64,000 nt of DNA from the NCBI GenBank assembly GCA_002069125.1, contig MVZN01000008.1:5643-69642 (forward strand), read 5' to 3'. This document shows positions 24,675 through 61,220 of the stretch, piece after piece. The notes beneath the pieces were generated by a model, which made no database searches, had not been told where the DNA came from, and worked only from the letters and a program-made list of their open reading frames with translations. The stretch's first letter is position 1; every line of letters begins with the position of its first letter. This DNA comes from Spirochaetes bacterium ADurb.BinA120. GTDB taxonomy: Bacteria; Spirochaetota; UBA4802; UBA5368. The translations under genes were made by a program, and so were the position numbers.

Positions 24675-25148
24675 CTACCAGTCCGTCATGTCGAATTTCC
24701 AGTACGGTCCCTCCTTTACGAACGAAAGCTCCATGCCGTTCTGGGCCGTAAGGACCGCCCCGGTGTCCTTTATCTCGCATTTCAGTATGCCGCTGTCCAG
24801 GGCCTTCCCCAGCGCGTCGTCGTTCTGCGCGCGCGCGAGGCGCATCTCGAGGCCCAAATAGGCCGTGGGCGAAAGGCTTGAGAGCCGTTCCGCCTCCACC
24901 CCATAGCGTTCGGCGAGCTTTTCGCGCCGCTTTTCCCCCATTGCCGCGATGAGGGAGCTCATCGTCGTGACATGGCGTATGCTCTCCTCCGATAGCGCCG
25001 TAAGCATGAGCTCGGGATTTCCCCTGTGATACGCCTTCTGTATAACGCCGAAAGCCTCCTCCGGCGAAAGGGGACCACGCGAAGAGCACGATGCGGCGAA
25101 TACGATAAGGGCAAGCATTGCCCGAAAGGCCATGCTCAATACACGCAT
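24675..25148 (-). CDS. Hypothetical lipoprotein
   Basis: Signal peptide with lipobox (LIVFAASCSS), 157 aa. Overlaps the panC 3' end by 13 nt. Confidence 0.45.
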   Translation of the reverse strand: MRVLSMAFRAMLALIVFAASCSSRGPLSPEEAFGVIQKAYHRGNPELMLTALSEESIRHVTTMSSLIAAMGEKRREKLAERYGVEAERLSSLSPTAYLGLEMRLARAQNDDALGKALDSGILKCEIKDTGAVLTAQNGMELSFVKEGPYWKFDMTDW

Positions 25149-26005: not shown

Positions 26006-26028
26006 CGTGGCCTCCTTTCCGCGGTCTT

Positions 26029-26892: not shown

Positions 26893-27094
26893 TTGACGGG
26901 GGAATAGCCCGTTTCGACCCGCGCGTCAAGGGTTTTTCCTCTCTATATGCGAAACGGACTTGAGAAGAAATAATCTTGCCATTTTCGGCATCGGGTGTTT
27001 TGAATCGTCCTGTTAAGCCATGCGCCGAACCGCTTCCGGCGCGTTCATTCGGGTTCCCGACATACTTGTGCCGAAAAACAGGCGGATAACGTAA

Positions 27095-43481: not shown

Positions 43482-43973
43482 ATGATCGCGCGGTTGTTCA
43501 GGGAAAATATGGATATCGAGGCCTTCCGACAGAAGGTCGTGGCGTTCGACGGAGACTTTCCGTTCGATAAAGAAGACATGATAGCCTTAGGGGACGCCTA
43601 TTTCGAACGATATCCGGACTGCTTTTCAAACCGGAATTGTCAGGACGTCACCCTGGGGTATCGCATGGTCCGCATCTGTGTAATCGAGAAGCTCGTAAGG
43701 CGGTGCGAGGCCGTACCGCGGGCCATCCTTAGGGAAGCCTTCGGCAACGCCTCCTCGATCCAGGCCGGAATAGAACGCCTGATGAGGGAGATCGGTGTCG
43801 AACGAGCGCTCGAATGCCACCGGATGATGGAGGAGGAGCTTGCCGCCGTCCAACATGTTATCGACTCCCTGCCCGTGGGAATGACGAAGGAGCGGTTTAT
43901 CGGCGGCATAAGCTATCTCCACAACGCCCTATACCTCATCAGAAGCGCGATCGACAAGGCTCCGCTGGGCTGA
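43482..43973 (+). CDS. Hypothetical protein
   Basis: 163-aa ORF with coding-like composition and no recognised motif. Confidence 0.45.
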   Translation: MIARLFRENMDIEAFRQKVVAFDGDFPFDKEDMIALGDAYFERYPDCFSNRNCQDVTLGYRMVRICVIEKLVRRCEAVPRAILREAFGNASSIQAGIERLMREIGVERALECHRMMEEELAAVQHVIDSLPVGMTKERFIGGISYLHNALYLIRSAIDKAPLG

Positions 43974-43989: not shown

Positions 43990-45753
43990 TCAGCATCCCC
44001 CGCGGACCAGCCGGAGCAGTTCGCGGGCGGCCTCCTCCGGTCCCCTCATCTCGAACCCGTTTATCCCCAGCCTGGTGCGCATCTGGCCGACGAACACTCC
44101 GCGCCCGAAGAAGGCGTTGAAGAACACCATGGCCAGACGGTCGTGGATCTCACGGTACTGGGGAGGTCCGAAGATGTTCGCGAAATAGGAGTGTACGATC
44201 CCGGTTGAGGTCGTGGTCCCCTTGCTCATCACCATCCCCTCGCGGAATATAGTGAACGCCCTGTCGACGTCGGAAAAGCGCTCGATGATCGGATGGTCGT
44301 CATCCACCTGCTCGTAGTTGTTCGCGTAGAGCACCATGTCGACACGGTGCCCTTTCATGACGATATCGCATGTGGTGACGGGGATGACGATACGCGCGTT
44401 GACCTGCGCGGGGCTCATTATGATGGAGCGGTCGATCTGACCGAAGGCGTACCCCGGCTGCAGGTCGTCAAGGCGGAGGAACGCCCCGATCTCCGTCCCG
44501 TAGCCGATGATGTCGCCCCTGTCGTCGATGTCCAGCGATCCCATGTCGTCGGCGATGATGGTCATGTCGCGTATATCGTCCCCGCCGATGGTCCTGAAGG
44601 CCTCGAGGGTCTCCGATTTTCCCGCCCCGGTATCTCCGATGATCAGGATGTTCTTCTGCGAGTCTCCGTCCATGACGATACGGACGAACGCGCCGTGAAA
44701 CGGGAGCCGCCCCGCCTGCATCATCCGTATGTTGTGGAGAGTCAACACCATCTTCTTCAGATAGCCGAAGTAGCCGAACTCGTCACGATTCGGTACCGCG
44801 GCGACCAGCATGCCGCCCTCCCTGTCCTCGTGGAACACCGTGGGGAACTCCGCCAGCGTATCGATGGCGTCTCCGGGCACGCCGAAAAGGTACAGTGCGT
44901 CGGGCTTTCGTGCAAGGTCTTCATCGGAGGCCATTTCGAAGAGATTACAGAGCGAAAAGCCCAGCTCGAAGAACCTGGCATGGAAGTAGATGAGTATCAG
45001 GAGCGGCCCCACCTTTGCCGGATAGCACAGCCATTCGTCGTCGACCGGATCGATTACCTCAAGGGGGTTGCGCTCTACGCGTATGAACTGCCCGGTGCGC
45101 TTGTTGATCGGCGGGTTCAGGATGAGCGGCGGATTGATGAGCACCTGCCGGATCACCCTTATGCGCGAAAGCTTCTCGTAGAGTCCGCCCGGAAGCTCGA
45201 GCGGCCGCGGAAGCGAGATGGCGGCTACCTGCGCGCCCGCCGTGAGCTGGCGGTAGATCCTGGGGTGAGTGCAGGTGAGGTTTTCGTCGATGTCCCGGTA
45301 AGCGCCGCGGACCAGGTGCGTCATCCGTTCGACGGTGTCGTTGAAGGTGCGGTACGGCCTCTTGTCCAGGATGTCTCCCTCGGAGTCGCATACGATGAAG
45401 CGGTCGTGCGAGCGCCAGAAGTTATACATCTGCTCGATGAGCCTGCTGAAATTCTGAACATCGCGCAGGAGAACCTCGGCCCCTTTAACGACGTTCGGTA
45501 CTACCGGTGCCGGAAGCTTGGCCAGGTGGCGCATCGTTTCCGCGAGTAGAGCAACCGCCCCTCCGTCTGGAAGCTCGTCAATGCCGGCGGCATCGAGGAT
45601 GGGCGAGCGCTTCTCGCGAAGCATCTCGAGGAAGCGGCCGAGTATTTCATGGAAAAGCTCGCTCGAAAAAAGCTCGTCAGCGGTTTCGCAGACTTTCCCC
45701 CGTGTGTAAATGATCACCTTGTTGTCCATTATTCTGAAACGCATCGTGTTCAT
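43990..45753 (-). CDS. Large protein with C-terminal HprK-like P-loop kinase domain
   Basis: ILIIGDTGAGKSETLEAF Walker A followed by ADD and downstream motifs parallel the HPr kinase C-domain (GDSGVGKSE). The N-terminal 380 aa or so are unrecognised. Confidence 0.55.
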   Translation of the reverse strand: MNTMRFRIMDNKVIIYTRGKVCETADELFSSELFHEILGRFLEMLREKRSPILDAAGIDELPDGGAVALLAETMRHLAKLPAPVVPNVVKGAEVLLRDVQNFSRLIEQMYNFWRSHDRFIVCDSEGDILDKRPYRTFNDTVERMTHLVRGAYRDIDENLTCTHPRIYRQLTAGAQVAAISLPRPLELPGGLYEKLSRIRVIRQVLINPPLILNPPINKRTGQFIRVERNPLEVIDPVDDEWLCYPAKVGPLLILIYFHARFFELGFSLCNLFEMASDEDLARKPDALYLFGVPGDAIDTLAEFPTVFHEDREGGMLVAAVPNRDEFGYFGYLKKMVLTLHNIRMMQAGRLPFHGAFVRIVMDGDSQKNILIIGDTGAGKSETLEAFRTIGGDDIRDMTIIADDMGSLDIDDRGDIIGYGTEIGAFLRLDDLQPGYAFGQIDRSIIMSPAQVNARIVIPVTTCDIVMKGHRVDMVLYANNYEQVDDDHPIIERFSDVDRAFTIFREGMVMSKGTTTSTGIVHSYFANIFGPPQYREIHDRLAMVFFNAFFGRGVFVGQMRTRLGINGFEMRGPEEAARELLRLVRGGC

Positions 45754-46856
45754 AGTTGTTCCTCCCTGTCGTCCTGTGATCGGGCCGTGTCGGGCGAAGT
45801 GCGCTCATTCGGGACCTGGATGTGCCGCCACAGGCCACGCGACCCCTGCCCAAGGCGCCAGAAGGCGGCGGCCTCGATATTTTTATCGCGGCAGAGCTTA
45901 AGTTTCATCCGGGTCGATTCAATGTCATCGTAGAAAACGCTTACTCTTACTTTTTCCTCGTATTCGAAATGGCAGCCCTTCTCGGGATTGTAGGATGGGC
46001 TTAGCTTTTTCGATTCGATCAGTTCGTCGATATGATGGTTGCGGAGCGCCCGGGCGAGGGTCCTGTCCTGCCAGGCCCTTCCGTACAGCGGAAGCCCCGC
46101 TACGAGTTTCCCGCCGGAGACCCTGGTCTTCGCGAACTCCAGTATCTCTTTGAGCCATATCACTGAGCTCACTGGTCCCGGGCCGCTGGCGCTCCAGTGC
46201 TGGTCGTATGCCATTATGATGACCCTGTCGGCGATGCCGGCTATCGCCCGGTAATCGTACGCGTCCGAAACGGATTTTCTGCGGGCGGGCACGGCGACGC
46301 TAAGCGTTTTCGAGGCCGGAAGGCCCTTTTTAAGCTCGCCCAGAAAATCGTGGAAATATTTCGCGTCGTCGGCCGGCACGCTCTCGAAGTCGATCTGCAC
46401 GCCGTCAAAGTTTTCCGCGGCTCGTACGATGTCGCCGGCGAGCCGTTTTCGATAGGGCAGGGACGGGTTTAGGCAGAAATGGGCGAGGGCCGGATTGGAG
46501 AGCTCCGTGATGACGATGTGCAAGCGCGCACGGGCGCGCAGGGCGCCTGGTAATACCGGCGGCGCGGGCACGGCCGCCAATACGCCCTTGGGGGTGATGG
46601 GAACTCCGAAATAACAGATATCGGTGAGAGGCTCCGTGCCTGTTAGCTCCTTCTCTTCCCCTTTCATGAGGTATCCCCAGAGCTCTTTGAAAACCAGCGG
46701 ACGCTCGAAAACCGTATTCCGCTCCTTTGCGTTCTCGATGGGATTCCCGGCAATGGGTTTCCGCCCGGATGAGGCGCTTCCCGCGCCGGCGGTGGAACAG
46801 GCCGATGACACAAGTATCAGGAGGGCCAGGGCGGCCTGTCGTAAAGGTGTGCTCAT
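45750..46856 (-). CDS. Glycoside hydrolase family 18 (chitinase-like/YaaH-like) lipoprotein
   Basis: Signal peptide plus lipobox (LILVSSACS) and the GH18 catalytic-region pattern (GVQIDFESV). ATGA overlap with the upstream kinase-domain gene. Confidence 0.6.
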   Translation of the reverse strand: MSTPLRQAALALLILVSSACSTAGAGSASSGRKPIAGNPIENAKERNTVFERPLVFKELWGYLMKGEEKELTGTEPLTDICYFGVPITPKGVLAAVPAPPVLPGALRARARLHIVITELSNPALAHFCLNPSLPYRKRLAGDIVRAAENFDGVQIDFESVPADDAKYFHDFLGELKKGLPASKTLSVAVPARRKSVSDAYDYRAIAGIADRVIIMAYDQHWSASGPGPVSSVIWLKEILEFAKTRVSGGKLVAGLPLYGRAWQDRTLARALRNHHIDELIESKKLSPSYNPEKGCHFEYEEKVRVSVFYDDIESTRMKLKLCRDKNIEAAAFWRLGQGSRGLWRHIQVPNERTSPDTARSQDDREEQL

Positions 46857-47187
46857 TCTCGATCTCCCGTATCAATTGGATCCGCCGGCTGTCCGGGGAT
46901 GGAGTTCAATCCCCGACCGGCGTAATAATTCCATCGGGCCCCATTGCGCGATGGTCCTTATTCAACATTCGATCGGCATTCGTCCCGGGACAACAAAAAA
47001 GCCACTACCGCTTTTCTCCCGAATGGCGAGGGAGTTAAAACGATACTGGCTTATCGAGCGACGGCCCGCTTACGGCTTCCGCCGGGGTTTCCGCGCCTTC
47101 CGCGCCGAGCTCCCGTCGCAAGAGGCGAAGTGGGCCTTCCCGCAATCTTCCAATCGATTAAAACGAAGCGAACGATTAGTTTGACGG

Positions 47188-47789: not shown

Positions 47790-48105
47790 TCCGGGAAGCC
47801 CTAATAATCGATATATATATGCCCATGAAAAATATTTTTAATCATAATAGTTCAACGATTTAAATGCTCCGCTCCGCCAGCTCGCCCCGCGGCGCCGTGT
47901 TCCATGTGTGCTTTACCGCTGACTACTAACACGGAGGCCGGTGTTCTGCAATATCTGATAATATATTTATCATATTATATTATATGCATATATTATAAGA
48001 TGTATAAAATAATATATTAAATATCCTAATATTGTATGATTAAGAAAAAATAATAAATCACGGCGCATTAGCATTAAAATAATATTGACTAATCCAATGC
48101 CGGGT
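47790..48105. promoter_or_regulatory. About 320-bp AT-rich island upstream of the Fdh-like/hydrogenase operon
   Basis: A stretch at roughly 15-25% GC inside a roughly 62% GC background, with many short A/T palindromes (atatgcatat at 47982-47991) and a TTGACT-16 nt-TACGGT promoter-like pair at 48084-48111. No ORF on either strand. Confidence 0.4.
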
Positions 48106-48309
48106 CTACGGTTGTCGCGTGATAGACGTGTGAGGCGCAACAATCACAAGGCCGCCCGCCACGGGTACCGTAAGCTCTGCTTTAGGTCTTGTCGGTTTGC
48201 GTACAGCCGTCCGCGGCGCTTATGGGCCTGTCTTGTTGAACGGGTCGTAATTGCGGGCGGCGCTGTGCGCGACCGACAACGGAAATTCTAATGCGTGGAG
48301 TGTTATGGT

Positions 48310-50316
48310 ATGAATCAGAAACCTGGCGTGTGCACCTTCTGCGGCACGGGTTGCGGCCATTTCATCGGCGTCGAAAACAACAGGATCGCGCGTGTCTATC
48401 CCTCCCAAAACCATCCCGTAAGCAAGGGGCGTCTTTGCGTTCGGGGCTGGAACATCCACGAACTCCTCGATACTCCCGATAGAATTAAAAAACCGCTGAT
48501 TCGTTCCGACGGCCCTTTCGTGGAGGCGTCCTGCGACGAGGCGGTGGGCCGACTAATTGACTCGTTGAAGAAGTACCCTCCGGAATCCATCGGCTTTCTC
48601 GCCTCGCCCCGCTCCTCCAACGAGGAGCAGTATCTTCTAATGAAGCTCGCCCGTTCGGTCTTCGGGACCAACAACATCTGCTTGGACAGCGAATCGGGCC
48701 ATCGCGCAAGCCTCAATGTTCTGCACGCGGGTACCGGTATGGCTGGAATGCTCGGCTCGATCGAGGAGATATGCGGGGCGGAATTCATCCTTGTAGCCGG
48801 GATAGACATCACCCGGCAGAACCCCATAATAGGAAGCGAGATCCACATGGCCGCGCGGGCGGGGGCCATGGTGGTGACCATGGACAGCCGGCGCACCCAG
48901 ATCGCCAGGCTATCGAAGAAATTTTTACAGGTGAGGCCCGGCGCAAACAAGCTTGCCGTCCTCGCCCTGGCTAAAACCATATATGAGGAAAATCTCCACG
49001 ACCCATCGTTCCTCGAAGCGCATACGGAAGGCTTCGAGGGGTTCCGAAGGGCTTTCGGAAAGCTATCCGAAAACGAATTATACGAAAAGACCGGCCTTAA
49101 GGCCGACGAGATAAAAACGGTCGCCCGCCATCTGGCCAGGGCGAAATCGGCGATGGTATTCTTCTCCTCCGGCATCTCGGGCCTCGATGAGGACACAATA
49201 GGGTATATCTACAATCTCTTTCTTCTGGCCGGAAAAATCGGAAAGGAGGGCTGCGGCGTAAATCCGATAGCCGGGCTCAACAACCTTCAGGGCGGCTACG
49301 ATATGGGGCTGGCCCCGGACCTCCTCACCGGATTCCAGCCGCTTGCCGACGCGGCGACGGCTAAAAAATTCGAAAAGGAGTGGGGGACGGCACTTCCCTC
49401 CTCACCGGGAAAGCCGATCTACCGATCGCTGGCGGACCAGGCATCGGAACTGAAGGCGCTTGTCGTGGTTGACCACGACGAGGGGATAGTGCGCTACGCC
49501 GACGCCATCAAAAAGCTCGACTTCGTGGCATACATAGGGGCCTTCAAGAACCCATTTGCGGAGTACGCTCATGTGGTGCTTCCAATCGCCACCTACGTAC
49601 AGGAGGACGCCACATTCACGAACGCGGAACGGCGCATACAGCTCTCAACGAAAAAGATCGAACCGGAAGACGGGCTGCTCCCCGGATGGAAACTGTATTC
49701 GATGATAGCCGCGAAGGCCGGCAGGGCATGGAAATACGCAAAGGTATCGGAGGTGATGGACGAGATCGCCCGGCTTACTCCTGCGTACGCCGGAGTTACG
49801 CACGCAAAGCTTGCCGGCGGTTTCGGCCTGCAGTGGCCTGTGGACGATAAAAACCCGGGCGGAACCAGGCGCTTCGACCTCGCCAAAGCAGGGCGAAAGC
49901 TCGCTTTTTACGGGGTGAGCGATGTGTTTGAGGCCCCATCGGCCGACGACCGGTTTCCATTCCTCCTCATGGTGGGCAAGGCGCAGCATTTCTGGCACCA
50001 GAACAACCTCATGAAAAAGACGCACATCCCCATGCGCGAATATAACGCGACACTGATGGATTATCCCGAAGGCTACGTCGAGATATGCCCGCAAAGCGCG
50101 AAGGAGATAGGGGTGCGCGACCGCTGGCCTGTGCGAGTGGTATCGCCTCACGGGGAGATGCGCGTGTCGGCTAGGGTTTCGGACGACGTGAGCCCCAATA
50201 CGGCCTATGCGCCCTACTTTGTACAGGAAATGATATCGCGTTTTTTGCTGGGGCACACCGAGGTTCTAAGGCAGGGAGAAGACGCAACGATTCCAGTAAG
50301 GATTGAGAAGGTATGA
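48310..50316 (+). CDS. Molybdopterin oxidoreductase, FdhF (formate dehydrogenase H)-like catalytic-type subunit lacking the Cys/Sec Mo ligand
   Basis: N-terminal 4Fe-4S motif CTFCGTGCG, MGD-binding regions and C-terminal Mo-bisPGD domain. Aligning the E. coli FdhF segment NNVDCCARVUHGPSVAGLHQSVG with NNICLDSESGHRASLNVLHAGTG puts Gly at the U140 position. There is no in-frame TGA. GTG 48295 is an alternative start. Confidence 0.75.
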   Translation: MNQKPGVCTFCGTGCGHFIGVENNRIARVYPSQNHPVSKGRLCVRGWNIHELLDTPDRIKKPLIRSDGPFVEASCDEAVGRLIDSLKKYPPESIGFLASPRSSNEEQYLLMKLARSVFGTNNICLDSESGHRASLNVLHAGTGMAGMLGSIEEICGAEFILVAGIDITRQNPIIGSEIHMAARAGAMVVTMDSRRTQIARLSKKFLQVRPGANKLAVLALAKTIYEENLHDPSFLEAHTEGFEGFRRAFGKLSENELYEKTGLKADEIKTVARHLARAKSAMVFFSSGISGLDEDTIGYIYNLFLLAGKIGKEGCGVNPIAGLNNLQGGYDMGLAPDLLTGFQPLADAATAKKFEKEWGTALPSSPGKPIYRSLADQASELKALVVVDHDEGIVRYADAIKKLDFVAYIGAFKNPFAEYAHVVLPIATYVQEDATFTNAERRIQLSTKKIEPEDGLLPGWKLYSMIAAKAGRAWKYAKVSEVMDEIARLTPAYAGVTHAKLAGGFGLQWPVDDKNPGGTRRFDLAKAGRKLAFYGVSDVFEAPSADDRFPFLLMVGKAQHFWHQNNLMKKTHIPMREYNATLMDYPEGYVEICPQSAKEIGVRDRWPVRVVSPHGEMRVSARVSDDVSPNTAYAPYFVQEMISRFLLGHTEVLRQGEDATIPVRIEKV

Positions 50317-51380
50317 CCATGTTCCTTATCAAGAAATCCGACGTCGGTAAAATTGCAGAGGAGCTCGCACGGGACCACCAGGTGTACGGCCCCATGATAG
50401 AGAAGGGCTCGGGACAGACCTTTTTCGACCGGGCGGACGATGTGTCCGAAATAAGCCTCTCGGCGCCCATCCCGTCGAATCCGCCCAAATCGGTCGTTTT
50501 TCCGCAGATGGAACGAGTCCTTGCCTACGAGTATGACAGGCCTAAAAATTCGGTAAAGATCGAGCCCGATTACAAGGTCGAGCCCAAGGCCCTTGTGGGG
50601 CTTCGTCCCTGCGACCTGGCGGGCATGTTATGCCTGGACCGCTTCTTTATGGGACAGGAATTCGTCGACGAGGTTTATCTCGCGCACCGCAAAAAGATGT
50701 TCATCGTCACCAACACCTGCGTCGCGCCGTTCAAGCAGTGCTTCTGCGTGTGCACGGACAGCGGCCCGGCGGCAAGCGAGGGCTATGACCTTAACCTCAC
50801 GGACTTAGGCGATGAGTTTCTGGTGGAGACCGGTTCCGAAAAGGGCGCAGTATTCGCGGCCGGGCTCGGCCTTGCGGCCGCCGACGACTCGCACCTGGCG
50901 AGGAAAAAGAAGATAGTGGACAAATCGATCTCTCTCTTCGAGGACATCGCGGTCGATTCAAAGGCCTGGATCTCGCGCGTGATGAACCGCGTAACCACCG
51001 GCTTCGTGAAGGAGGAGGTCTGGGAATACATCGGCGACCAGTGCTTCGAGTGCGGGGCCTGCTCCTTCGTGTGCCCGTCCTGCTCGTGCTTCAACATCGC
51101 CGACGTAACCAACCCGGAATGCGAGGGCTGCGCCGACCGTCTGCGCTCCTGGGATTCGTGCTCCTATGAGGGATATTCGCGCATGGCGGGCGGGCACAAT
51201 CCGCGAAAACCGGTCGAGGACCGGCGCAACAAGCGCTTTTTCTGCAAGCTGTCATATTCGCAGATGAAGAAATATCTCAGGCCGGGATGCGTGGGCTGCG
51301 GGCGCTGCGCCTGGGTGTGTCCCGGCGATATCGGCCTGCCGAACGTCGTGACCTATGTCAGAAGGGAAATTACGAGGTAG
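50313..51380 (+). CDS. Fe-S subunit, AsrA/HydB (sulfhydrogenase beta)-like
   Basis: Multiple Cys clusters (CFCVC; CFECGACSFVCPSCSC; CVGCGRCAWVCP). ATGA overlap with the upstream gene. Confidence 0.65.
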   Translation: MTMFLIKKSDVGKIAEELARDHQVYGPMIEKGSGQTFFDRADDVSEISLSAPIPSNPPKSVVFPQMERVLAYEYDRPKNSVKIEPDYKVEPKALVGLRPCDLAGMLCLDRFFMGQEFVDEVYLAHRKKMFIVTNTCVAPFKQCFCVCTDSGPAASEGYDLNLTDLGDEFLVETGSEKGAVFAAGLGLAAADDSHLARKKKIVDKSISLFEDIAVDSKAWISRVMNRVTTGFVKEEVWEYIGDQCFECGACSFVCPSCSCFNIADVTNPECEGCADRLRSWDSCSYEGYSRMAGGHNPRKPVEDRRNKRFFCKLSYSQMKKYLRPGCVGCGRCAWVCPGDIGLPNVVTYVRREITR

Positions 51381-51389
51381 GGGAATCCT

Positions 51390-52241
51390 ATGAGCCAGGT
51401 ACTGAACATCCAGGACGGTAAGATAGTCACCGTGCCCGAGGTCGCCACGATAGAGGAAATAAGGGACGAGATCCGCGAGGTCAAGACCTTCTACCTCTCG
51501 ATCGACAACAGGGAGATATGGAGCGGCTTCAAGTACAAATCGGGGCAGTTCATCATGCTGACGGTTTTCGGTTCGGGCGAGTTCGCCGTTTCGCTCCCGC
51601 CCAGCCCCGAAAACGACCGGTTTCACATAACGGTTCGGACCGTGGGCAAGGTGACGAGCGCCCTCCACGCCCTCAAGCCCGGCGACAAGGTGGGCATAAG
51701 AGGGCCGTTTGGAAACGGCTTTCCCTTCGAGGAGTTCAAGGGGAAAAACTTAGTGTACGTGGCGGGCGGCATAGGGCTCATCCCGCTTCGTTCGTCCATC
51801 GTCCATGCGCTCCAGCACAAGAAAGACTTTGGCAGGGTGCTGGTGCTGCACGGCGCCCGTACGCCCGACGACCTCATGTATAAGGAAAATCTTAAAGAGT
51901 GGCAGAGCTTCGAAGGCTTCGAGACCTACATCACCGTGGATGTCTCGACTCCGGGCTGGACGGGCGAGACAGGCTTCGTCCATACGCTTTTCGACAAGGC
52001 GAACCTCCCCATCGACAATACGGTCGCCTTCGTATGCGGTCCCCCGGTGATGTTCAATACGGTGATAGGGGAGCTCATGAAGCGGGGCCTTTCGGACGAA
52101 AACATATATTCAACACTCGAGCGGCACATGAAATGCGGAGTGGGAAAGTGCCAGCACTGCGCGGTCGGAAGGACCCTGGTCTGCACCGACGGGCCGGTGT
52201 ACACCTACCGGCAGATAAAGACCCTGGGCGAGGAGATATAG
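51390..52241 (+). CDS. FAD/NAD(P)-binding oxidoreductase with C-terminal 2Fe-2S, AsrB/HydG/PyrK-like
   Basis: FAD site (RFHITVRTVGKVT), NAD(P) site (VYVAGGIGLIPL) and C-terminal CxxxxCxxC (CGVGKCQHCAV). Confidence 0.7.
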   Translation: MSQVLNIQDGKIVTVPEVATIEEIRDEIREVKTFYLSIDNREIWSGFKYKSGQFIMLTVFGSGEFAVSLPPSPENDRFHITVRTVGKVTSALHALKPGDKVGIRGPFGNGFPFEEFKGKNLVYVAGGIGLIPLRSSIVHALQHKKDFGRVLVLHGARTPDDLMYKENLKEWQSFEGFETYITVDVSTPGWTGETGFVHTLFDKANLPIDNTVAFVCGPPVMFNTVIGELMKRGLSDENIYSTLERHMKCGVGKCQHCAVGRTLVCTDGPVYTYRQIKTLGEEI

Positions 52242-52262
52242 CCCGCCGGGGACGGAAAGAGC

Positions 52263-52778
52263 ATGAAGGAACAGGCGGTGAACATCGTGGACGACATCCG
52301 CAGCGCACTCTCGCGAAAGACCTGCATCGTGGGCGTGGGGAACACCCTGCTCGGCGATGATGGCGCGGGCGTGCTTCTCGTCGAGACGCTCAGGCGCGAC
52401 GGCGCGGGCGAACGCGTACACTTAGTCAACGCGGAGGATATCATCGAGAGTCATGCTTTCGAAATCGCGGAAGGCGACTGGGGCACCGTGATAGTGGTGG
52501 ACGCGGTGAGTTTCGGCGGAAGCCCCGGAGACGTAATGTTCGGGGACTTTTCTGAGACAGGCGATTTGCTGAACGATTTCTCGACGCATAAGCTTTCGCT
52601 CAGGCTTTCCGAGTCGATCTGGCGGCAAAGCGGAAAAAAGACCTTTCTCCTCGGCATCCAGCCGGAGGCCGTGGATTTCGGCGAGGGGCTCTCGGAGGCC
52701 GTGCGCAGGAGCGTCGATACGCTCGGCGGCATACTACTCGAAGCAGTTAAACAGCACCCCGAAGGAGCGTGTGTATGA
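52263..52778 (+). CDS. [NiFe]-hydrogenase maturation endopeptidase (HycI/HyaD family)
   Basis: GVGNTLLGDDGAGV motif and 171 aa. Confidence 0.8.
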   Translation: MKEQAVNIVDDIRSALSRKTCIVGVGNTLLGDDGAGVLLVETLRRDGAGERVHLVNAEDIIESHAFEIAEGDWGTVIVVDAVSFGGSPGDVMFGDFSETGDLLNDFSTHKLSLRLSESIWRQSGKKTFLLGIQPEAVDFGEGLSEAVRRSVDTLGGILLEAVKQHPEGACV

Positions 52779-54634
52779 GTGACCTTTATGGAAAACTGAT
52801 TCTCGCGATGGCGATACTCCTCTGTTCGGCGGTCGTTGTGCCGTTTATCGCCGAAAAACGCAAGCTGGCGGGCTGGCTCAACTTCATCTTCGTTGCGGTG
52901 GCGGGCGCCATCCTCCTTTCGATCAGCTACAGCGTGATATTCGTGAAGTCCCTTCCGTCGCGGCTCGTTTCGGTGGGCCCTCTGGATATCTACTTTCTGC
53001 TGGACGGCTTTTCAGGGTTTTTCCTGGGGATAATTTCGCTCATGGCGATCGTAAGCGCGTTCTATTCGATAGAATACATGGAGCATTACGGCGATTACGG
53101 CCTCAGGAGCTACTACGCCAATTATCCAATTTTCGTACTGGGCATGGCGGGCATCGTTACGGTCGACGATCTTACTACGGGCTTTTCCATCGCATGGCAG
53201 GCGATGACCATTACGAGCTATTTTCTCGTGCGCTTCGAACATCGAAAAAAAGAGATCGTAAAGGCCGCCAACAAGTACCTCGTCCTCATGGAGCTTGCAT
53301 GGCTCTTCATAGTGATCGCCGCCCTCGCGGCGGGAAGCTCCATGGGCGATTCGGTGCACTCGGTCACCCGCCTCATCGGCGAGACCGGGGGCGCGCTTCC
53401 CTATCTCATCTACGGACTCGTCTTCCTGGGGTTCGGCTTTAAGGCCGCGGTCTTTCCGTTCGGACAGATGTGGCTGCCGGACGCGCACTCCATCGCCCCT
53501 TCGCCCATAAGCGCGCTCCTTTCGGGGGTGATGATAAAGACCGGCGTCTATGGGATCATCCGATCGTTTTTCTGGATGGTGCCGCACTCCGATACCTTTC
53601 ACTTCAGCGGGGCCTTCTGGGGCGCGCTCATCGCCTCCTTCGGCGTGGTCACGCTCTTTATCGGCACGGTGCAGTCCATGAAGCAGAGCCAGTCGAAGCG
53701 GCTGCTGGCTTATTCCTCGATAGGGCAGGTGGGCTATATCATCTTCGGAATCGGCGCCGCCCTCTTCATGGTAAACGCCGAGAGCGCCGCGCTTAAAATG
53801 CTCGGCCTCATAGCGCTCGTCGGGGTGGTGTATCACATACTCAATCACGCGGTGTTCAAGGGGCTGCTCTTTCTTACAAGCGGCAGCGTGCTCTACAGCA
53901 CCGGGACCAAGGACCTCAACAGGTTAGGCGGGCTTATAAACCTCATGCCGGTCACCGCGTTTGTCGCCGGCATAGCCTCCCTGTCCATCTCGGGGGTCCC
54001 TCCGTTCAGCGGTTTCGTGAGCAAATGGACGCTTGTGTCCACTTCGCTTCTTGCCGGAAGCGAGGTGCTGTTCCTTGTCATCTTCGGCATCGTGGCGCTC
54101 TTTACGAGCGCGGTGACGCTTGCGTGTTATGTGAAATTTTTTGGCATGACCTTCACCTCGGCGGGGGCCGAGTGGGGGGTGGGCAGGGAGGTCAGGGAGG
54201 TCCCCGCGGGCATGCTTATCCCCAAGCTCTTTCTTACGGCGCTGTGCCTGCTCCAGGGGCTCATCCCCTTCTTCTACTTCCAGACCATAATAGGCATATT
54301 CGCGGGTTCCGGGGGCTCCCTCATTTCGGCGGCTTTCAGGAACCTGAACGTGCAGGGCCACGTATTCAACTCGGCCATGGGCGTGTCGGTGGGAATTCCG
54401 GGGCTTTCCGCCGTCTCGTCGATCGCGGTTCCCGCGGTGCTTCTTGCGGTTTTCGCGGCGGCGTTCGTCGTCGTAGCTTTTTTAAGAAAGTCCGGCGGAT
54501 CGAAGGAACGCGAGGTCCCGACATGGCTCTGCGGTTATCAGGACCTGCACGATAAAAACAGGTACCGCGACAAGAGCATGTTCGCGGCGCTAAAAAACCT
54601 TCTGTATTGGACCGGCGGAAACGTAAAGGAATAA
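52775..54634 (+). CDS. Hydrogenase membrane subunit, HycC/HyfB (NuoL/antiporter-like) family
   Basis: About 14 TM helices with the NuoL/MrpA-like core. The ATG at 52775 has a GGAG RBS and overlaps the protease stop. Confidence 0.8.
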   Translation: MSDLYGKLILAMAILLCSAVVVPFIAEKRKLAGWLNFIFVAVAGAILLSISYSVIFVKSLPSRLVSVGPLDIYFLLDGFSGFFLGIISLMAIVSAFYSIEYMEHYGDYGLRSYYANYPIFVLGMAGIVTVDDLTTGFSIAWQAMTITSYFLVRFEHRKKEIVKAANKYLVLMELAWLFIVIAALAAGSSMGDSVHSVTRLIGETGGALPYLIYGLVFLGFGFKAAVFPFGQMWLPDAHSIAPSPISALLSGVMIKTGVYGIIRSFFWMVPHSDTFHFSGAFWGALIASFGVVTLFIGTVQSMKQSQSKRLLAYSSIGQVGYIIFGIGAALFMVNAESAALKMLGLIALVGVVYHILNHAVFKGLLFLTSGSVLYSTGTKDLNRLGGLINLMPVTAFVAGIASLSISGVPPFSGFVSKWTLVSTSLLAGSEVLFLVIFGIVALFTSAVTLACYVKFFGMTFTSAGAEWGVGREVREVPAGMLIPKLFLTALCLLQGLIPFFYFQTIIGIFAGSGGSLISAAFRNLNVQGHVFNSAMGVSVGIPGLSAVSSIAVPAVLLAVFAAAFVVVAFLRKSGGSKEREVPTWLCGYQDLHDKNRYRDKSMFAALKNLLYWTGGNVKE

Positions 54635-54665
54635 AAGGGGCCATCCTTATTTAACGAGGTACGCT

Positions 54666-56339
54666 ATGCCAGGCATTGAAGAGATCAAAAACGGCTTGAA
54701 GAAGGGTTTTAAGGACGCCGTCGTCTCGGTCGAGGAGCAGAACCCGACGCGGATGTTCGTTGATATAAAAAGCGCCAAGGTGCGCGATGTTTCCAACGCG
54801 ATCGTCGCGATGGGCGGGCGCTATCTTGTAAGCGTGGGCTACGACAATATCGCGCGTGACGGCACGCTGGGGATGATCCACACCTTCGGCTTCGACCGCG
54901 ACGGCATTTATCTGGCCCTTCGCACGTCGGTGCCCGAATCGAAGCCCGAGATGGACTCCATAACGCCGGATATTCCAAACGCCGGCTGGTCCGAGCGGGA
55001 ATATATGGACCTGTTGGGGATGAGGTTTTCCGGGCACCCCAAACCGAAGAGGCTCGTTCTTGCCGACGACTGGCCCGAGGGCGTGCATCCCCTTCGAAAG
55101 GACATCCCCTGGAACCTCATGCCGCCGGCGGCGGAGGACGTCGCCTACCAACTCGACGAGTGCCCCGAGGGCTGCAGTATAGTCCCGCTCGGGCCGTATC
55201 ATCCCACCCTGCACGAGCCGGAGCACTTCGCCATCTACGTCGATGGGGAGACAGTAAAGGGGTGCGATTACCGCGGTTTTATGACGCACCGCGGAATCGA
55301 AAAGCTGTGCCAGACGCAGCTTACGTACAATGAGGTGCCGTTCGTCGCGGAGCGCATCTGCGGCATCTGCGGCTCGGTCCACGCCACCAGCTATTCGCAG
55401 GCGGTTGAGCTTGCGGGCGGCATAAAAATTTCCCGCAGGGCCGAGTACATCCGCACCATAATGCTCGAGATCGAGCGCATACACTCGCACCTATTGTGGC
55501 TTGGGGTCGCAGGCCACCTCATTGGTTTCGACACGGTCTTCATGCAGTCGTGGCGCATTCGCGAGCCCGTCATGTGGCTCGGAGAGAGGATCACCGGAAA
55601 CAGGAAGACCTATGGGATGATCGTTATCGGCGGAGTGCGCCGGGACATTACGGACGAAATGAAAGACGATATACGGAATGTGATCGGGACGATCGAAAAG
55701 GAGCTTCTGACCGTTCAGAAGGCGATACAGGGCGACACGGCGATTCACAGGCGAACAAGGGGCGTCGGTTACATCTCCACCGATGATACGAAGCTCTGGA
55801 GCCTGGTAGGCCCGGTCGCCAGGGCGCGGAACGTGGACATCGACGTTCGCCGCGACTACCCGTACGCCGCCTACGATGAGATGAAGTTCGACGTTCCGGT
55901 CTTCGATTCAAACGACGTGTGGGCCACCGTGCTGGTTCGCCTGGTCGAGACCTTCGAGGCGATCAAGATCATACGCCAGTGCCTGGACAAAATGCCGAAC
56001 GACGGCCCGGTTCTTACCGAGCTCGATGCGCCCATCCCGGCGCTGAAGCACGGCCTGGCGGCGGTGGAGGCCCCGCGCGGCGAGGTGGTGCACTATGTCA
56101 TCACCGGCGAAAAGAACGCCCCCGAGCGCTGGCGGGTGCGCGCCCCTACCTATCCCAATCTCCAGGGGGTCCCGCTCATGCTTTTGAACAACCAGCTCGC
56201 CGACGTGCCGATCATCATCGGGAGCATAGACCCATGCTTTTCGTGCACCGACCGGATGGAGGTAGTGGACCTGAGATCGGGTGCGGCGAAGATCGCCTCG
56301 CAGGTCGAGCTCGAAGAGCTCTCACGGAACAAAAGGTAG
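54666..56339 (+). CDS. Group-4 [NiFe]-hydrogenase large subunit, fused NuoC-NuoD type (HycE-like)
   Basis: N-terminal NuoC-like domain, Ni-Fe site cysteines RICGICGSVH and DPCFSCTDR, and a C-terminal extension consistent with HycI-type processing. Confidence 0.85.
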   Translation: MPGIEEIKNGLKKGFKDAVVSVEEQNPTRMFVDIKSAKVRDVSNAIVAMGGRYLVSVGYDNIARDGTLGMIHTFGFDRDGIYLALRTSVPESKPEMDSITPDIPNAGWSEREYMDLLGMRFSGHPKPKRLVLADDWPEGVHPLRKDIPWNLMPPAAEDVAYQLDECPEGCSIVPLGPYHPTLHEPEHFAIYVDGETVKGCDYRGFMTHRGIEKLCQTQLTYNEVPFVAERICGICGSVHATSYSQAVELAGGIKISRRAEYIRTIMLEIERIHSHLLWLGVAGHLIGFDTVFMQSWRIREPVMWLGERITGNRKTYGMIVIGGVRRDITDEMKDDIRNVIGTIEKELLTVQKAIQGDTAIHRRTRGVGYISTDDTKLWSLVGPVARARNVDIDVRRDYPYAAYDEMKFDVPVFDSNDVWATVLVRLVETFEAIKIIRQCLDKMPNDGPVLTELDAPIPALKHGLAAVEAPRGEVVHYVITGEKNAPERWRVRAPTYPNLQGVPLMLLNNQLADVPIIIGSIDPCFSCTDRMEVVDLRSGAAKIASQVELEELSRNKR

Positions 56340-56349
56340 AGGAAAGACC

Positions 56350-57249
56350 ATGGATATCCTGACAGCCGTGATCAACGCGTTGATTTTCCTGGCGCTGGCC
56401 CCGTTTTTCGAGGGTGTCATACGAAGGCTTTACGCCAGGGTGCAGTCCCGAAAGGGGCCGCCGCTCATTCAGCCCTATCTCGATCTCCTTAAGCTTCTGG
56501 GCAAGGAGACGCTTTCGGCCGGAAACTGGGCCTTCAGGATCGCACCGATGATGGCGCTGGCGTCCATAATTACGGTGGTGTCGATAATGCCCCTCGGCTA
56601 CAGGGCGGGATACCTGACCCAATACGGCGACATCATCACGGTCATATATCTGCTCATGCTCGGCGGGGTGTCGGTGCTTCTGGGGGCGCTCTCCAGCAAA
56701 AACACATACGCCATGTTAGGGGCGAGCCGCGAGATGGTGACCATGATAATGATCGAGCCGGTCCTGGCCATGACCCTTATATTAGGCGCGCTGAAGGCGA
56801 AAAGCCTTGCGATCGACGCGAGCCTTTCGAGCTCCCTTAACGGCGCTTACGGCATTTCGATGGTGCTCATGCTCGTCGTTTTTCTGATGGCGCTCCAGGC
56901 CTTTGTGGCCAGGCAGCCCTTCGATATTGCCGAGGCGGAGGTCGAGATTATGGAGGGCCCGTTTATCGAATACAGCGGCCCGGGGCTGGCGCTCTTCAAG
57001 TATTACATGATGATTAAGCAGATGTTCTACGCGGCGCTTTTCGCTGCGGTGTTCGTTCCGCTGGTCAACACCGGCTATTATATCGTGGATGTGGCGGTCC
57101 AGCTTGTCGAGATTCTGGCGGTCTTCGTGCTGATCTCGCTCCTCGGCTCGACCAACCCGCGCTTGCGCATAGACCAGGCGGTTAAGTATTATGCCGTGCT
57201 AATATTCGCTTCGCTCGCGGCCGTGGGGCTTACGGCGTACGGAATTTAG
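56350..57249 (+). CDS. Hydrogenase membrane subunit HycD/NuoH-like
   Basis: Polytopic NuoH-family membrane protein with RKGPPLIQPYLDLLKLL. GAGGA RBS. Confidence 0.8.
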   Translation: MDILTAVINALIFLALAPFFEGVIRRLYARVQSRKGPPLIQPYLDLLKLLGKETLSAGNWAFRIAPMMALASIITVVSIMPLGYRAGYLTQYGDIITVIYLLMLGGVSVLLGALSSKNTYAMLGASREMVTMIMIEPVLAMTLILGALKAKSLAIDASLSSSLNGAYGISMVLMLVVFLMALQAFVARQPFDIAEAEVEIMEGPFIEYSGPGLALFKYYMMIKQMFYAALFAAVFVPLVNTGYYIVDVAVQLVEILAVFVLISLLGSTNPRLRIDQAVKYYAVLIFASLAAVGLTAYGI

Positions 57250-59118: not shown

Positions 59119-59829
59119 ATGAAAATAAGGCATCTGGTATTCATCCTGCTTGTGGCGGTTGTCGCGGGCTCCCTGTACAACAGCCAGCGGCTGTACCACT
59201 GGTACCTCGCCGCGTATTACCAGCGCTTCCTCGGTGAAGATCGGGAAAAATCCATAGAAAGGGCGCGCTCGCTTTACAGGGATGAGCGCTATGAAGAGCT
59301 CGATGCCTATACCGGACGCATGAGGGTCCTCTACCCGGACAATTCCGACCTGCGCCGCCTGAAAGGGTTCGCGATGATTAAAACCGGCCGCGAATCGGAG
59401 GGGGCGCACATGGTTATATCCTCGTTGAGAAAGAACGAGGCCCTTCTTTCGGTTGCCAGTGCCATCGAAATATTGTTCAAGGAAGGGGAGTACGCGGACC
59501 TCGACGACATCATCTCCAGCCACGGGACCATGGGCGACCCGTATCTTCAATATATTCACGGCGTTTCGCTTTATCATGTCAAAAAATACGCTGAGGCGGA
59601 GCGGCGCCTTGCAGGAGCGTTGAGCGCCGGGAAACAGGATTACGACACGCTGTACTACCTTGGTCTGGCCCGTGAGAAAAACGGCAGAACGGTCGAGGCG
59701 CTCGCCGCGATCGAAAAGGCCTATGCGATAGACCCTATACGCCCCGAGGCCCGAAAGGCCCTGGTTCGTCTCTATCGAGTGACAAAACAATACGACAGGG
59801 CGGAAAGAATTCCGCGGAGGACACCATGA
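59119..59829 (+). CDS. TPR-repeat protein with N-terminal membrane anchor
   Basis: Hydrophobic N-terminus (LVFILLVAVVAGSL) and TPR repeats (YYLGLAREKNGRTVEAL). Start uncertain (59059, 59104 or 59119). The longer antisense ORF 59050..59790 was rejected. Confidence 0.5.
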   Translation: MKIRHLVFILLVAVVAGSLYNSQRLYHWYLAAYYQRFLGEDREKSIERARSLYRDERYEELDAYTGRMRVLYPDNSDLRRLKGFAMIKTGRESEGAHMVISSLRKNEALLSVASAIEILFKEGEYADLDDIISSHGTMGDPYLQYIHGVSLYHVKKYAEAERRLAGALSAGKQDYDTLYYLGLAREKNGRTVEALAAIEKAYAIDPIRPEARKALVRLYRVTKQYDRAERIPRRTP

Positions 59830-61220
59830 TCGACCATTTTTTCCATCCTAACGGCGTCGCCATCATCGGCGCGACGGACAACCCGGCAAAGGGCGGCTAT
59901 CATATTCTGCGAAATACGCTGGCCGGCTACAAGGGGCGCGTGTATCCCGTCAATCCGAGGTACGAAGAAATACAGGGGACCAGGTGCTATCCGAACGTCG
60001 AATCGATACCCGAGGATTTCGATCTTGCGATCTATTTTATCCCGGCCAAATTTCTGCCCGACACCATAAAGGCGTGCGCAAAGAAGGGGGTGAAGGCCAT
60101 AATCATTGAGTCCGCGGGCTTCTCGGAGGTGGGCGAGGAGGGGCGGCTCTTGCAGAGGGAATCGGTGGAGCTGGCGCGGAGCCTGGGGATAAGGCTGTGG
60201 GGGCCGAACTGCATGGGGCTTCTCGACGGCCATAGCCGCAACGTCTTCTCGTTCATGTACTCGGATAAATGGATGACCCTTATGAAGCCGGGGGGCGTTT
60301 CGCTGGTGGTCCAGAGCGGGATGCTTTCGGCGGGCTTTCTCATGATGATTCTGGAGAGCGGCGGCATGGGTATCGCCAAGGTGTGTTCCATCGGAAACAA
60401 GTGCGATGTGGATGAGACTGAACTGCTGGAGTACCTGATCGCCGACGAGGAGACCGGCGTCATAGGCCTTTATCTGGAGTCGATAATCGACGGCCGTAAA
60501 TTTCTTGAGCTCGCTCGCTCCACGTCCAAGCCCATTATAGTGCTAAAGGCCGGGCGAAGCGAGGAGGGCGCGAAGGCCGCGATGAGCCATACGGCGAGCC
60601 TGTCGGGCGTGGCGGCGGTCTACGAGGGGGCCTTTCGCCAGGCCGGAATAGTGCAGGTTTACGACGTGCACGAGTTGATGGACTTCGCGCGCGGTTTCTC
60701 CAAGGTGCCGCCTTGCGCCGTGGACGCAGGGACGGCCGTCATCACCTTCTCCGGCGGGGCCGGTATAGTAACCTCGGACCTCCTGTCCGACCGCGGGGTA
60801 AAGCTTGCCGATTTGGGAGAGCAAACCATCTCCGCCCTAAAAGAGGTGTTTCCGCCATGGATGAAGCCCACGCATCCTGTCGACGTATGGCCCTCGGTCG
60901 AGCTTAACGGCCTCGAGCCGGTTTACGCGAAGTCTATTGAGGCGGTCATGAAGGACCCGGGGGTCGATTCTATCATAGTCCAGTCTATCGCCTGGGAGCT
61001 TGCAAGCCCCGGCTATCTCGTCGAGGCCGGGAAGCTGCAGCGGAAGTACCAGAAGCCCATCGTGCTCTGGCAGATAGGCGCCATGGATATAGCCGAAAAG
61101 TACCGTGTCGCGGCGGAGGACGCCGGGATACCGGTCTTCACCGAGATCAGCCGATGTGTTGGGTTTGTCGCCGGGGCAAAGGAGCACTCGAGGAAGAAGG
61201 CCGGGACGGGTGTTTCATAA
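59826..61220 (+). CDS. Acyl-CoA synthetase (NDP-forming) alpha-domain / CoA-binding protein
   Basis: CoA-binding Rossmann motifs (PNGVAIIGATDNPAKGG; GVKAIIIESAGFSE; LWGPNCMGLL). ATGA overlap with the upstream TPR gene. Confidence 0.7.
   Translation: MIDHFFHPNGVAIIGATDNPAKGGYHILRNTLAGYKGRVYPVNPRYEEIQGTRCYPNVESIPEDFDLAIYFIPAKFLPDTIKACAKKGVKAIIIESAGFSEVGEEGRLLQRESVELARSLGIRLWGPNCMGLLDGHSRNVFSFMYSDKWMTLMKPGGVSLVVQSGMLSAGFLMMILESGGMGIAKVCSIGNKCDVDETELLEYLIADEETGVIGLYLESIIDGRKFLELARSTSKPIIVLKAGRSEEGAKAAMSHTASLSGVAAVYEGAFRQAGIVQVYDVHELMDFARGFSKVPPCAVDAGTAVITFSGGAGIVTSDLLSDRGVKLADLGEQTISALKEVFPPWMKPTHPVDVWPSVELNGLEPVYAKSIEAVMKDPGVDSIIVQSIAWELASPGYLVEAGKLQRKYQKPIVLWQIGAMDIAEKYRVAAEDAGIPVFTEISRCVGFVAGAKEHSRKKAGTGVS

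Follow-up and report, generated by a model that had tools for sequence, protein, structure and literature searches.

The window analysed here is a stretch of 64,000 nt from contig MVZN01000008.1 of Spirochaetes bacterium ADurb.BinA120. Its minus strand carries two overlapping open reading frames (ORFs), one for a protein that we call X and one for a glycosyl hydrolase of family 18 (GH18). Upstream of both lies the gene for a small MpsC/DUF2294 protein, followed by a structured RNA leader (Table 1). The cassette of MpsC gene and leader in front of X is the most interesting feature of the locus. With modest confidence we explain the locus as a whole by an enzyme of the phosphoenolpyruvate (PEP) carboxykinase (PEPCK) type that stands behind an MpsC-leader cassette and next to which the GH18 gene is incidental.

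An initial annotation had described a 587-residue protein with an HprK-like P-loop kinase domain, translationally coupled to a GH18 lipoprotein. Both ORFs exist and neither is a chance ORF, and all strings quoted for the larger protein (IIGDTGAGKSETLEAF, ADD, GAFLRLDD and VIPVTT) are found in X. The ATGA overlap of 4 nt is real as well, but the order of the genes was reversed: the GH18 gene is located upstream, and its TGA stop codon overlaps the ATG of X. The earlier observation was largely right, which does not hold for its interpretation as an HprK paired with a GH18 protein. In the following, L and a number designate related loci or contigs, and P and a number related proteins.

Table 1. 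Features of the locus and of other parts of the window (positions are those of the window; aa, amino acids; pLDDT, predicted local distance difference test; SD, Shine-Dalgarno).
Feature	Position	Strand	Remarks
X	43990..45753	(-)	ORF of 587 aa; cytoplasmic enzyme of the PEPCK/HprK superfamily; NCBI family label 'phosphoenolpyruvate carboxykinase'
YFGYLKK, residues 328-334 of X	44752..44772	(-)	PEPCK-specific Y-x-G-x-x-K-K; corresponds to E. coli PckA Y207/K212/K213 (hhalign)
FHGA, residues 352-355 of X	44689..44700	(-)	His353 is the candidate metal-site His; aligned to HprK 'HG'
GDTGAGKSE, residues 373-381 of X	44611..44637	(-)	P-loop (kinase-1a) of HprK-like 'GKSE' flavour
ADD, residues 401-403 of X	44545..44553	(-)	kinase-2/metal-binding Asp pair; proposed counterpart of PckA D268/D269; aligned to HprK 'ADD'
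NAR, residues 452-454 of X	44392..44400	(-)	corresponds to PckA N331-x-R333, which binds substrate and ATP phosphate (hhalign)
Residues 508-527 of X	44173..44232	(-)	conserved segment with pLDDT < 50; candidate mobile active-site lid
SD sequence AGGGAGG of X	45761..45767	(-)	strong; within the 3' end of the GH18 gene, 7 nt 5' of the X ATG
ATGA overlap, 4 nt	45750..45753	(-)	start codon of X and stop codon of GH18 (ctATGAac, read from the sequence)
GH18 gene	45750..46856	(-)	ORF of 368 aa; YdhD/SleL/YaaH type, exported, probably a lipoprotein
DGVQIDFE, residues 151-158 of GH18	46383..46406	(-)	catalytic D-x-E kept; middle Asp of DxxDxDxE is Gln
GH18 signal peptide, ...VSSAC to Cys20	46797..46856	(-)	lipobox-like, non-canonical at -3
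RNA leader, about 160 nt	46991..47151	(-)	structured; alignments, covariance model and covariation
Intrinsic terminator of the leader	46995..47052	(-)	hairpin AAGCCAGUAUCG...CGGUAGUGGCUU, then a U6 run
MpsC/DUF2294 gene, about 120 aa	47188..47550	(-)	Pfam PF10057, E 1.8e-36
Sigma-70-like promoter matches	47979..48020	(-)	three overlapping, 10/12 positions each; AT-rich divergent intergenic region
163-aa ORF	43482..43973	(+)	convergent with X, 16 nt between the stops
Oxidoreductase and hydrogenase genes	48295..57249	(+)	divergent from the MpsC gene
597-aa ORF	25136..26929	(-)	pantoate-beta-alanine ligase domain in residues 310-585 only
464-aa protein	59826..61220	(+)	CoA-binding and succinyl-CoA-ligase-like flavodoxin domains

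Family, fold and motifs of X

In a large protein search 5,920 of the 8,000 candidates scored were homologues of X with E ≤ 0.001, and X is therefore no chance ORF. The best 120 homologues were 59-100% identical to X, with at least 98% query coverage in all but two, and came from Spirochaetota, Thermodesulfobacteriota, Omnitrophota, Atribacterota, Auribacterota, Margulisiibacteriota and Negativicutes. Clustering at 50% gave 559 clusters with E ≤ 0.001, and among GTDB contigs (one genome per species) at least 545 stretches encode a relative of X. The family is very large, about 60% conserved, and occurs in anaerobes of more than ten phyla. Its members carry the NCBI name 'phosphoenolpyruvate carboxykinase', but none has a Pfam domain, and neither Pfam nor NCBIfam holds a model for the family. 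Since a review from 2020 lists ATP-, GTP- and PPi-dependent enzymes as the only types of PEPCK (PMC8100219) and our literature search returned no paper on the X family, the NCBI name looks like an automatic label at the level of the superfamily. X represents a large, strongly conserved and sequence-divergent branch of the PEPCK family.

The AlphaFold2 model of X, built on 32 sequences, had a pLDDT of 83 and a predicted template modelling score (pTM) of 0.84. In a Foldseek comparison of the full model, all 50 PDB matches listed were ATP- or GTP-PEPCKs (E 2e-14 to 2e-11). The alignments covered 357-636 columns and therefore more than the C-terminal domain alone could supply. When residues 345-587 were modelled apart, PEPCKs again ranked first (E 4.5e-5), and HprK/P (2qmh) appeared only at rank 30 (E 8e-4). 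A family profile built from 50 members, down to 26% identity, was aligned by hhalign to E. coli PckA over 236 columns (E 2.3e-4), including the PEPCK-specific YxGxxKK motif. Against HprK sequences from the PDB the same profile scored better locally, with E values of 3e-6 to 9e-6, but over only 29-48 columns (H353-G, GDSGxGKSE and ADD); the block of HG, HprK-type P-loop and ADD lies in residues 350-408 (E 2.9e-6).

The HprK-like domain seen in the initial annotation is thus backed by statistically supported motif similarity, but this is restricted to those few columns, and a match to Pfam Hpr_kinase_C is missing. The N-terminal part indeed lacks an HprK N-domain (no match to Hpr_kinase_N); it is not unrecognised, as had been stated, because from about residue 200 it corresponds to the N-terminal domain of PEPCK. 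PEPCK had been named there as an alternative that would refute the HprK reading, and the alignment of X to PEPCK is indeed the more extensive one. PEPCK and HprK belong to one fold superfamily, and the HprK reading was therefore a near miss at superfamily level and no plain error. Taken together, the architecture of X is very likely that of PEPCK rather than that of HprK.

Across the 50 members a Pfam scan returned PEPCK_ATP for 28 (best E 2.3e-6), DUF4914 for 17 (best E 5.6e-5) and Hpr_kinase_C for 10 (best E 7.7e-5), all of them weak and below threshold. P0125, which is 44% identical to X, reached 25.2 bits for PEPCK_ATP, with a cut-off of 26.5. DUF4914, on which no paper was found in the literature, could represent a sister branch within this superfamily.

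The hhalign register places Y328-F-G330-Y-L-K333-K334 of X on Y207-G-G209-E-M-K212-K213 of PckA, G373...K379-S380 on G248...K254-T255, and N452-A-R454 on N331-T-R333. Conservation among the 50 members is high for the first of these motifs (Y328 in 48, G330 and K333 in 49 each, K334 in 43) and for the P-loop (G373 and G378 in all 50, K379 in 49, S380 in 46, E381 in 48). The same holds for H353 (44 of 50), the Asp pair (D402 in 46, D403 in 47) and the N-x-R motif (N452 in 46; R454 in 45, with Lys in 3 more). Within residues 508-527, which may form a mobile lid over the active site, K511, G512, T513, T514 and G518 are kept in 41-44 members. Close to the C-terminus the sequence RT-x-LGI-x-G resembles the nucleotide region NTGW-x-G of ATP-PEPCK, in a part of the alignment that has zero confidence.

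Proposed reaction and gene neighbourhood of X

X is a cytoplasmic two-domain P-loop enzyme of the PEPCK/HprK type and would act, in an anaerobic spirochaete that lives by fermentation, at the PEP-pyruvate-oxaloacetate node. Because it appears to retain the phosphoryl-transfer and metal-binding set of PEPCK, it probably, though by no means certainly, performs the PEPCK-type reaction (oxaloacetate + NTP <-> PEP + CO2 + NDP). PFOR/POR, an aminotransferase and citrate synthase, which are encoded next to X or behind the cassette described below, make or use oxaloacetate or pyruvate, which supports a role of X at this node but does not prove it.

Several observations speak against a PEPCK assignment. 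The identity of X to solved PEPCKs is only 11-18%, with TM-scores of 0.38-0.50, the hhalign probability against PckA was 44%, and the N-terminal domain is about 120 residues longer than that of PckA. A Pfam scan of X (E ≤ 0.1) returned generic P-loop noise, with no match to PEPCK or to Hpr_kinase_C, and NCBIfam model NF006821 scored 16.9 bits with a cut-off of 369. P-loop noise was also all that was obtained when PDB sequences were searched with X alone and as a profile, neither PEPCK nor HprK being significant. The flavour of the P-loop region (GKSE, ADD) is closer to HprK than to PEPCK. In the hhalign alignment His353 is offset by one hairpin from PckA H232, the presumed counterpart of the active-site His of HprK in the two folds. 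The Asp pair D402/D403 was set by hhalign on 'DDD' of the PckA sequence 'GWDDDG', about six residues past D268/D269, and its equation with D268/D269 is therefore a reading of motifs and not a result of the alignment. For the substrate-binding Arg65 there are candidates only, R118 (50/50), R153 (49/50) and R168 (46/50), in a region aligned with zero confidence. Neither a description of the X family nor an assayed member was found in the literature. Finally, an Omnitrophota contig (L067) encodes a canonical ATP-PckA (3-1418, minus strand) at a distance of about 7 kb from X (8001-9752); this PckA shares 57-67% identity with the E. coli enzyme and its gene seems to contain frameshifts. As both are on the same contig, X is no simple replacement of PckA in this organism. 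In L060 an apparent PckA-like P-loop match proved to belong to an ABC ATPase.

These points bear on a second explanation, which we consider less likely but far from negligible: X has the PEPCK fold and catalyses another reaction, using a different 2-oxo or enol acid or a donor such as PPi or polyphosphate. The extreme divergence from PEPCK sequences, the HprK-like P-loop, the enlarged N-domain with its unsettled Arg65 equivalent, the canonical PckA beside X in L067 and the weak DUF4914 matches of 17 of the 50 members would all fit, and HprK/P can use PPi. Against this, every PEPCK catalytic motif that can be aligned is kept, including Y-x-G-x-x-K-K, the C-terminal RT-x-LGI-x-G resembles NTGW-x-G within its zero-confidence alignment part, and both gene context and shared regulation point to enzymes of oxaloacetate and pyruvate. 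Enzymes of PPi-dependent type comprise about 1,100-1,200 aa. We rejected the identity of X as such an enzyme, since X has 587 aa and a fold of the ATP/GTP type; PPi-PEPCK is evolutionarily unrelated to the ATP and GTP types (PMC8100219).

That X is instead an HprK-like protein serine kinase/phosphorylase working together with the exported GH18 protein is highly improbable. The block of HG, GDSGxGKSE and ADD is shared with HprK (hhalign E 3e-6), Hpr_kinase_C matches 10 of the 50 members weakly, HprK/P 2qmh is among the fold matches of the C-domain, and the two genes overlap by 4 nt. Yet the alignment to HprK is limited to 29-48 columns, the HprK N-domain and a Pfam Hpr_kinase match are lacking, and the signature LE[IV]RG of HprK sequences is absent from X by inspection, while the KK motif and the N-domain specific for PEPCK are present. 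A gene for HPr was not found by tblastn in the window or in 87 related loci with approximate query sequences. Moreover, X is cytoplasmic and the GH18 protein exported, and the pairing of the two genes is limited to close relatives, with varying gene order. The PEPCK-type reaction remains our preferred reading.

The neighbour is a family-18 glycosyl hydrolase, as initially annotated (Pfam PF00704 Glyco_hydro_18, E 1.8e-25), with B. subtilis YdhD (E 5.9e-24), the cortical-lytic enzyme 4s3j and YaaH as closest solved relatives. A check of the DxxDxDxE motif, which had been suggested, showed that the catalytic D-x-E is retained and that Gln replaces the middle Asp. The aligned motif of YdhD, GGVTIDFE, has Thr at this position and the same IDFE, and GVQIDFE or GIQIDFE is retained in the homologues of L001 and L007. 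Since the Cys of the signal peptide is conserved in four distinct homologues, where it is followed by S-[ST], we regard this as an exported and probably lipidated protein.

We searched for GH18 genes with tblastn and jackhmmer over the 87 loci, which form 52 non-redundant groups. GH18 is located close to X in only three of about 55 non-redundant lineages (the clade of the window, L007 and L010), and in three different orders (X-GH18 in L007, GH18-MpsC-X in L010). Relatives with X at 85-87% identity share the MpsC-GH18-X layout and the 4-nt overlap, which is identical in L001-L003 and L089, whereas no GH18 gene was found near X in L008, L009, L025, L090, L091 and L092, where X is 66-71% identical. 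Conservation of the gene pair, the other check that had been proposed, therefore does not extend beyond close relatives. With three of about 55 lineages and three gene orders, the pairing is best read as incidental and confined to a few related spirochaete lineages, and we rejected a functional GH18-X pair. GH18 would have been inserted between leader and X only in the narrow lineage of the window, and the ATGA overlap would reflect operon packing and no functional partnership.

When the flanking ORFs of the 52 groups were clustered, no constant neighbour of X was seen across phyla; the largest cluster consisted of generic GGDEF/HD signalling domains, mostly non-adjacent to X. PFOR/POR genes stand no more than about 2 kb away from X in L025, L010, L092, L009 and L068, and an aminotransferase gene lies downstream of X in L068. 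Some of these neighbourhoods also contain SAICAR-synthetase-like genes. In Spirochaetota, L092 (6809-11767) carries PFOR, PurE (AIRC) and such a gene, and L025 (9758-13551) PFOR followed by a short SAICAR-synthetase-like fragment; in L068 (2397-11358) PFOR, a DUF4015 glycosyl-hydrolase-like gene, a SAICAR-synthetase-like gene and the aminotransferase gene are found. In P0162 the C-terminus of X is joined to a SAICAR-synthetase-like domain, either by fusion or by a merged gene call. When this hint of a fusion was followed, the domain recurred only as a neighbouring gene (L066, L068, L025 and L092).

Other parts of the window were also inspected. The 163-aa ORF convergent with X matched neither Pfam nor NCBIfam, and the only homologues seen were those of the closest relatives (L001-L003 and L089). 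The genes divergent from the MpsC gene encode a formate-dehydrogenase-like molybdopterin oxidoreductase with FeS and NAD-binding subunits, then a HycI protease and a membrane [NiFe] hydrogenase of Ech/Hyf type (NuoL-like, fused NuoC/D-like and NuoH-like), an arrangement that resembles formate hydrogenlyase. The N-terminal 300 residues of the 597-aa ORF have no Pfam match. The 464-aa protein may be the alpha part of an ADP-forming acetyl-CoA synthetase, which would fit a fermentative lifestyle.

The MpsC gene and the RNA leader

The MpsC ORF is listed from a GTG at 47634, but its homologues start near Met29. In 17 loci of Spirochaetota and Thermodesulfobacteriota, all with X at least 60% identical to that of the window, an MpsC gene precedes X and shares its strand; the MpsC alignment has a mean identity of 67%. 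Other loci of both phyla, with X about 60-62% identical, do not have an upstream MpsC gene. In all of the 17 clade loci first examined the MpsC gene is directly followed by the leader, which in the window starts 36 nt past the mpsC stop codon and ends 134 nt before the GH18 start. The candidate promoter of the transcript mpsC-leader-GH18-X is a set of sigma-70-like consensus matches upstream of the MpsC gene (Table 1).

Alignment of the spacers between MpsC and X gave, from 5' to 3', an invariant GGAAGA, a helix P1 around an insert that varies from a loop of 3-4 nt up to about 90 nt, an invariant UAAGCC, and a long hairpin that leads into a U-run. This hairpin also forms in the minimum-free-energy fold, and its helix (helix 2) has compensatory changes in 7 of 12 pairs. 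A generic terminator scan did not pick it up, because the hairpin is long. RNAalifold predicted 23 pairs, 14 of them with compensatory changes, and the covariance model matched the window leader with 106 bits (E about 1e-25). In an alignment of 19 sequences 92.3% of the cells were paired (mean after shuffling 77.8%; slid controls 25-50%) and 16 of 23 pairs had compensatory changes. For 46 sequences the values were 90.8% (76.1%; 23-48%) and 17 of 23, and in both cases none of 500 shuffles reached the observed pairing; as these alignments were fitted to the structure of the model, the numbers are biased in its favour. Taken alone, the window leader had an unremarkable thermodynamic z-score (-1.7), and the argument for a structure is based on covariation. 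Rfam 15 gave no match at gathering scores in the window and 10 related loci, with nothing over the leader at E ≤ 10, and none at E ≤ 0.01 in 7 further loci.

With the covariance model a copy of the leader was found in each of the 17 clade loci; in other phyla there was none upstream of X. Further loci were obtained by scanning metagenomes once for a pattern and then applying the covariance model, and the leader is now seen in the window, L001, L005-L010, L016, L017, L021, L025, L059, L089-L092 and L095-L153. In L007 a first copy lies between mpsC and a Hox-type hydrogenase operon and a second one directly upstream of X; L021 has two tandem copies, and in L059 the leader is next to X and 1.2 kb from mpsC. 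In metagenome loci the MpsC-leader cassette precedes genes for citrate synthase (L112, L136 and L153) or a class I/II aminotransferase (L097). The leader is also found there upstream of X (L113, L115 and L127) and of GH18-X (L126, L129, L099, L155 and L116). The MpsC gene immediately precedes the leader in all of these loci but L113, whose contig ends before an upstream gene is reached.

In other bacteria the element occurs in a shorter form of about 106 nt (GGAUGACUAGAU...GAGUAAGCCGACGUGG...terminator), with two to three copies per contig, namely in L107 (1808, 4838, 6926), L104 (4423, 4925, 8340), L114 (719, 1514), L131, L144, L133, L142, L147 and L150. It precedes genes for DnaK, a BON-domain protein, a P-type cation ATPase, a GH94 and glucoamylase-domain protein, and MpsC-like proteins, and looks like a stress regulon of another lineage. 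The end of contig L107, which has three copies of the short element, also carries a partial group II intron (1-117, minus strand; Rfam RF02003, 76.9 bits).

Judging from this anatomy, X would be transcribed behind mpsC and the leader in the clade of the window, and read-through at the terminator would set its expression. How the terminator might be controlled can be explained in three ways. We tentatively favour, at somewhat less than even chances, that the terminator is modulated through binding of the MpsC-like protein to the leader, in a layout like that of hutP. This is favoured by the strict co-occurrence of gene and RNA, the portability of the cassette and the optional P1 insert. On the other side, neither sequence nor profile searches found a solved relative or a recognised RNA-binding fold for MpsC/DUF2294, and deletion of mpsC in S. 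aureus had no phenotype (PMC6689103). A link to CO2 through MpsABC of S. aureus was set aside, as this bacterium can do without mpsC and the gene shows no synteny with mpsAB elsewhere.

Nearly as likely is a riboswitch that senses a metabolite or an ion and of which MpsC is merely a frequent neighbour. Conserved nucleotides around a helix that abuts the terminator are the usual layout of a riboswitch, and the tandem copies in L021, the several copies per contig before different genes (DnaK, BON protein, P-type ATPase, GH94/glucoamylase-domain protein) and the three copies of L107, with no MpsC gene within 11 kb, agree with this. A P1 interior that varies between a loop of 3-4 nt and about 90 nt would be unusual for a ligand pocket, and MpsC lies directly upstream in 17 of 17 clade loci and in the same locus in most metagenome loci of the long form. 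It is quite unlikely that the leader is simply the terminator or 3' untranslated region of mpsC, with no effect on X. Its start 36 nt past the mpsC stop and its position directly behind mpsC in most loci would be expected in this case. A plain terminator, on the other hand, needs neither the invariant 5' GGAAGA nor a covarying P1, and copies are found immediately upstream of X without adjacent mpsC (second copy of L007, L059), in front of mpsC (L104, L150) and in front of unrelated genes (L107, L114).

Binding of the leader by MpsC, which we tentatively prefer, would give DUF2294, a domain without known role, a function that can be tested, and the cassette adds a covariation-supported RNA motif that is not in Rfam. 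The PEP-pyruvate-oxaloacetate node has a central place in fermentation, anaplerosis and CO2 fixation. The X family occurs in hundreds of species (Spirochaetota, Thermodesulfobacteriota, Omnitrophota, Atribacterota, Bacteroidales, Planctomycetota, Negativicutes and others), with about 60% identity between phyla. If its chemistry differs, a fourth sequence class of PEPCK would alter metabolic reconstructions of many uncultured anaerobes, and an HprK-like P-loop within a PEPCK body bears on the origin of HprK from carboxykinase-like enzymes. A more far-reaching reading combines two claims and appears unlikely to us. X would be the founder of a new class of the PEPCK fold that is widespread among anaerobic bacteria and differs in donor or substrate from the ATP, GTP and PPi types, and DUF2294/MpsC and the leader RNA would exert a new kind of terminator control as a portable cassette (citrate synthase, aminotransferase and hydrogenase operon, and in the short form DnaK, BON protein and P-type ATPase).

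Comparison with known systems

Among known enzymes ATP-PEPCK (PckA, PF01293; E. coli 1AQ2/2PXZ) is similar to X in its two-domain fold and in the order of Y-x-G-x-x-K-K, P-loop and N-x-R. The His and the Asp pair stand at corresponding places in the motif order, though out of register with H232 and D268/D269 in hhalign, and PEPCK_ATP is the top weak Pfam match across the members of the X family. Apart from its low identity and larger N-domain, X differs from PckA in a C-domain that is about 70 residues shorter and in a P-loop with GKSE, not GKTT, and it stays below every curated threshold. GTP-PEPCK (M. tuberculosis 4WOU, rat cytosolic PEPCK) resembles the full model in fold (E about 1e-12) and provides the best match of the C-domain (E 4.5e-5), but X has no sequence match to models of the GTP type, and the Phe triad that sandwiches guanine was not seen in X by eye.

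HprK/P (PF07475; 1KO7, 1JB1) belongs to the same superfamily and has a nearly identical block H-G...G-D-S-G-x-G-K-S-E...A-D-D. It comprises about 310 aa, has a different N-domain and no KK motif, and acts on Ser46 of HPr, whereas X lacks any HprK signature beyond about 50 residues. The uncharacterised DUF4914 (PF16260) is related to X by the weak matches already mentioned, all of them below threshold. The GH18 protein resembles the peptidoglycan-active enzymes YdhD, B. cereus SleL and YaaH (E 6e-24 to 2e-17), in which the middle Asp before IDFE is replaced as well. It differs from them by its signal peptide with a lipobox-like end and by an N-terminal stretch of about 120 residues without match, and its host is probably a non-sporulating spirochaete.

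In hutP antitermination of B. subtilis, as in similar protein-dependent attenuators, the gene of a small regulator comes before a structured RNA that contains an intrinsic terminator, and the regulated enzyme genes (hutHUIG) follow. The likeness to this system is one of working principle only. MpsC/DUF2294 has no detectable similarity to HutP, but the arrangement mpsC-leader-X has the same layout of small-protein gene, RNA and enzyme gene.

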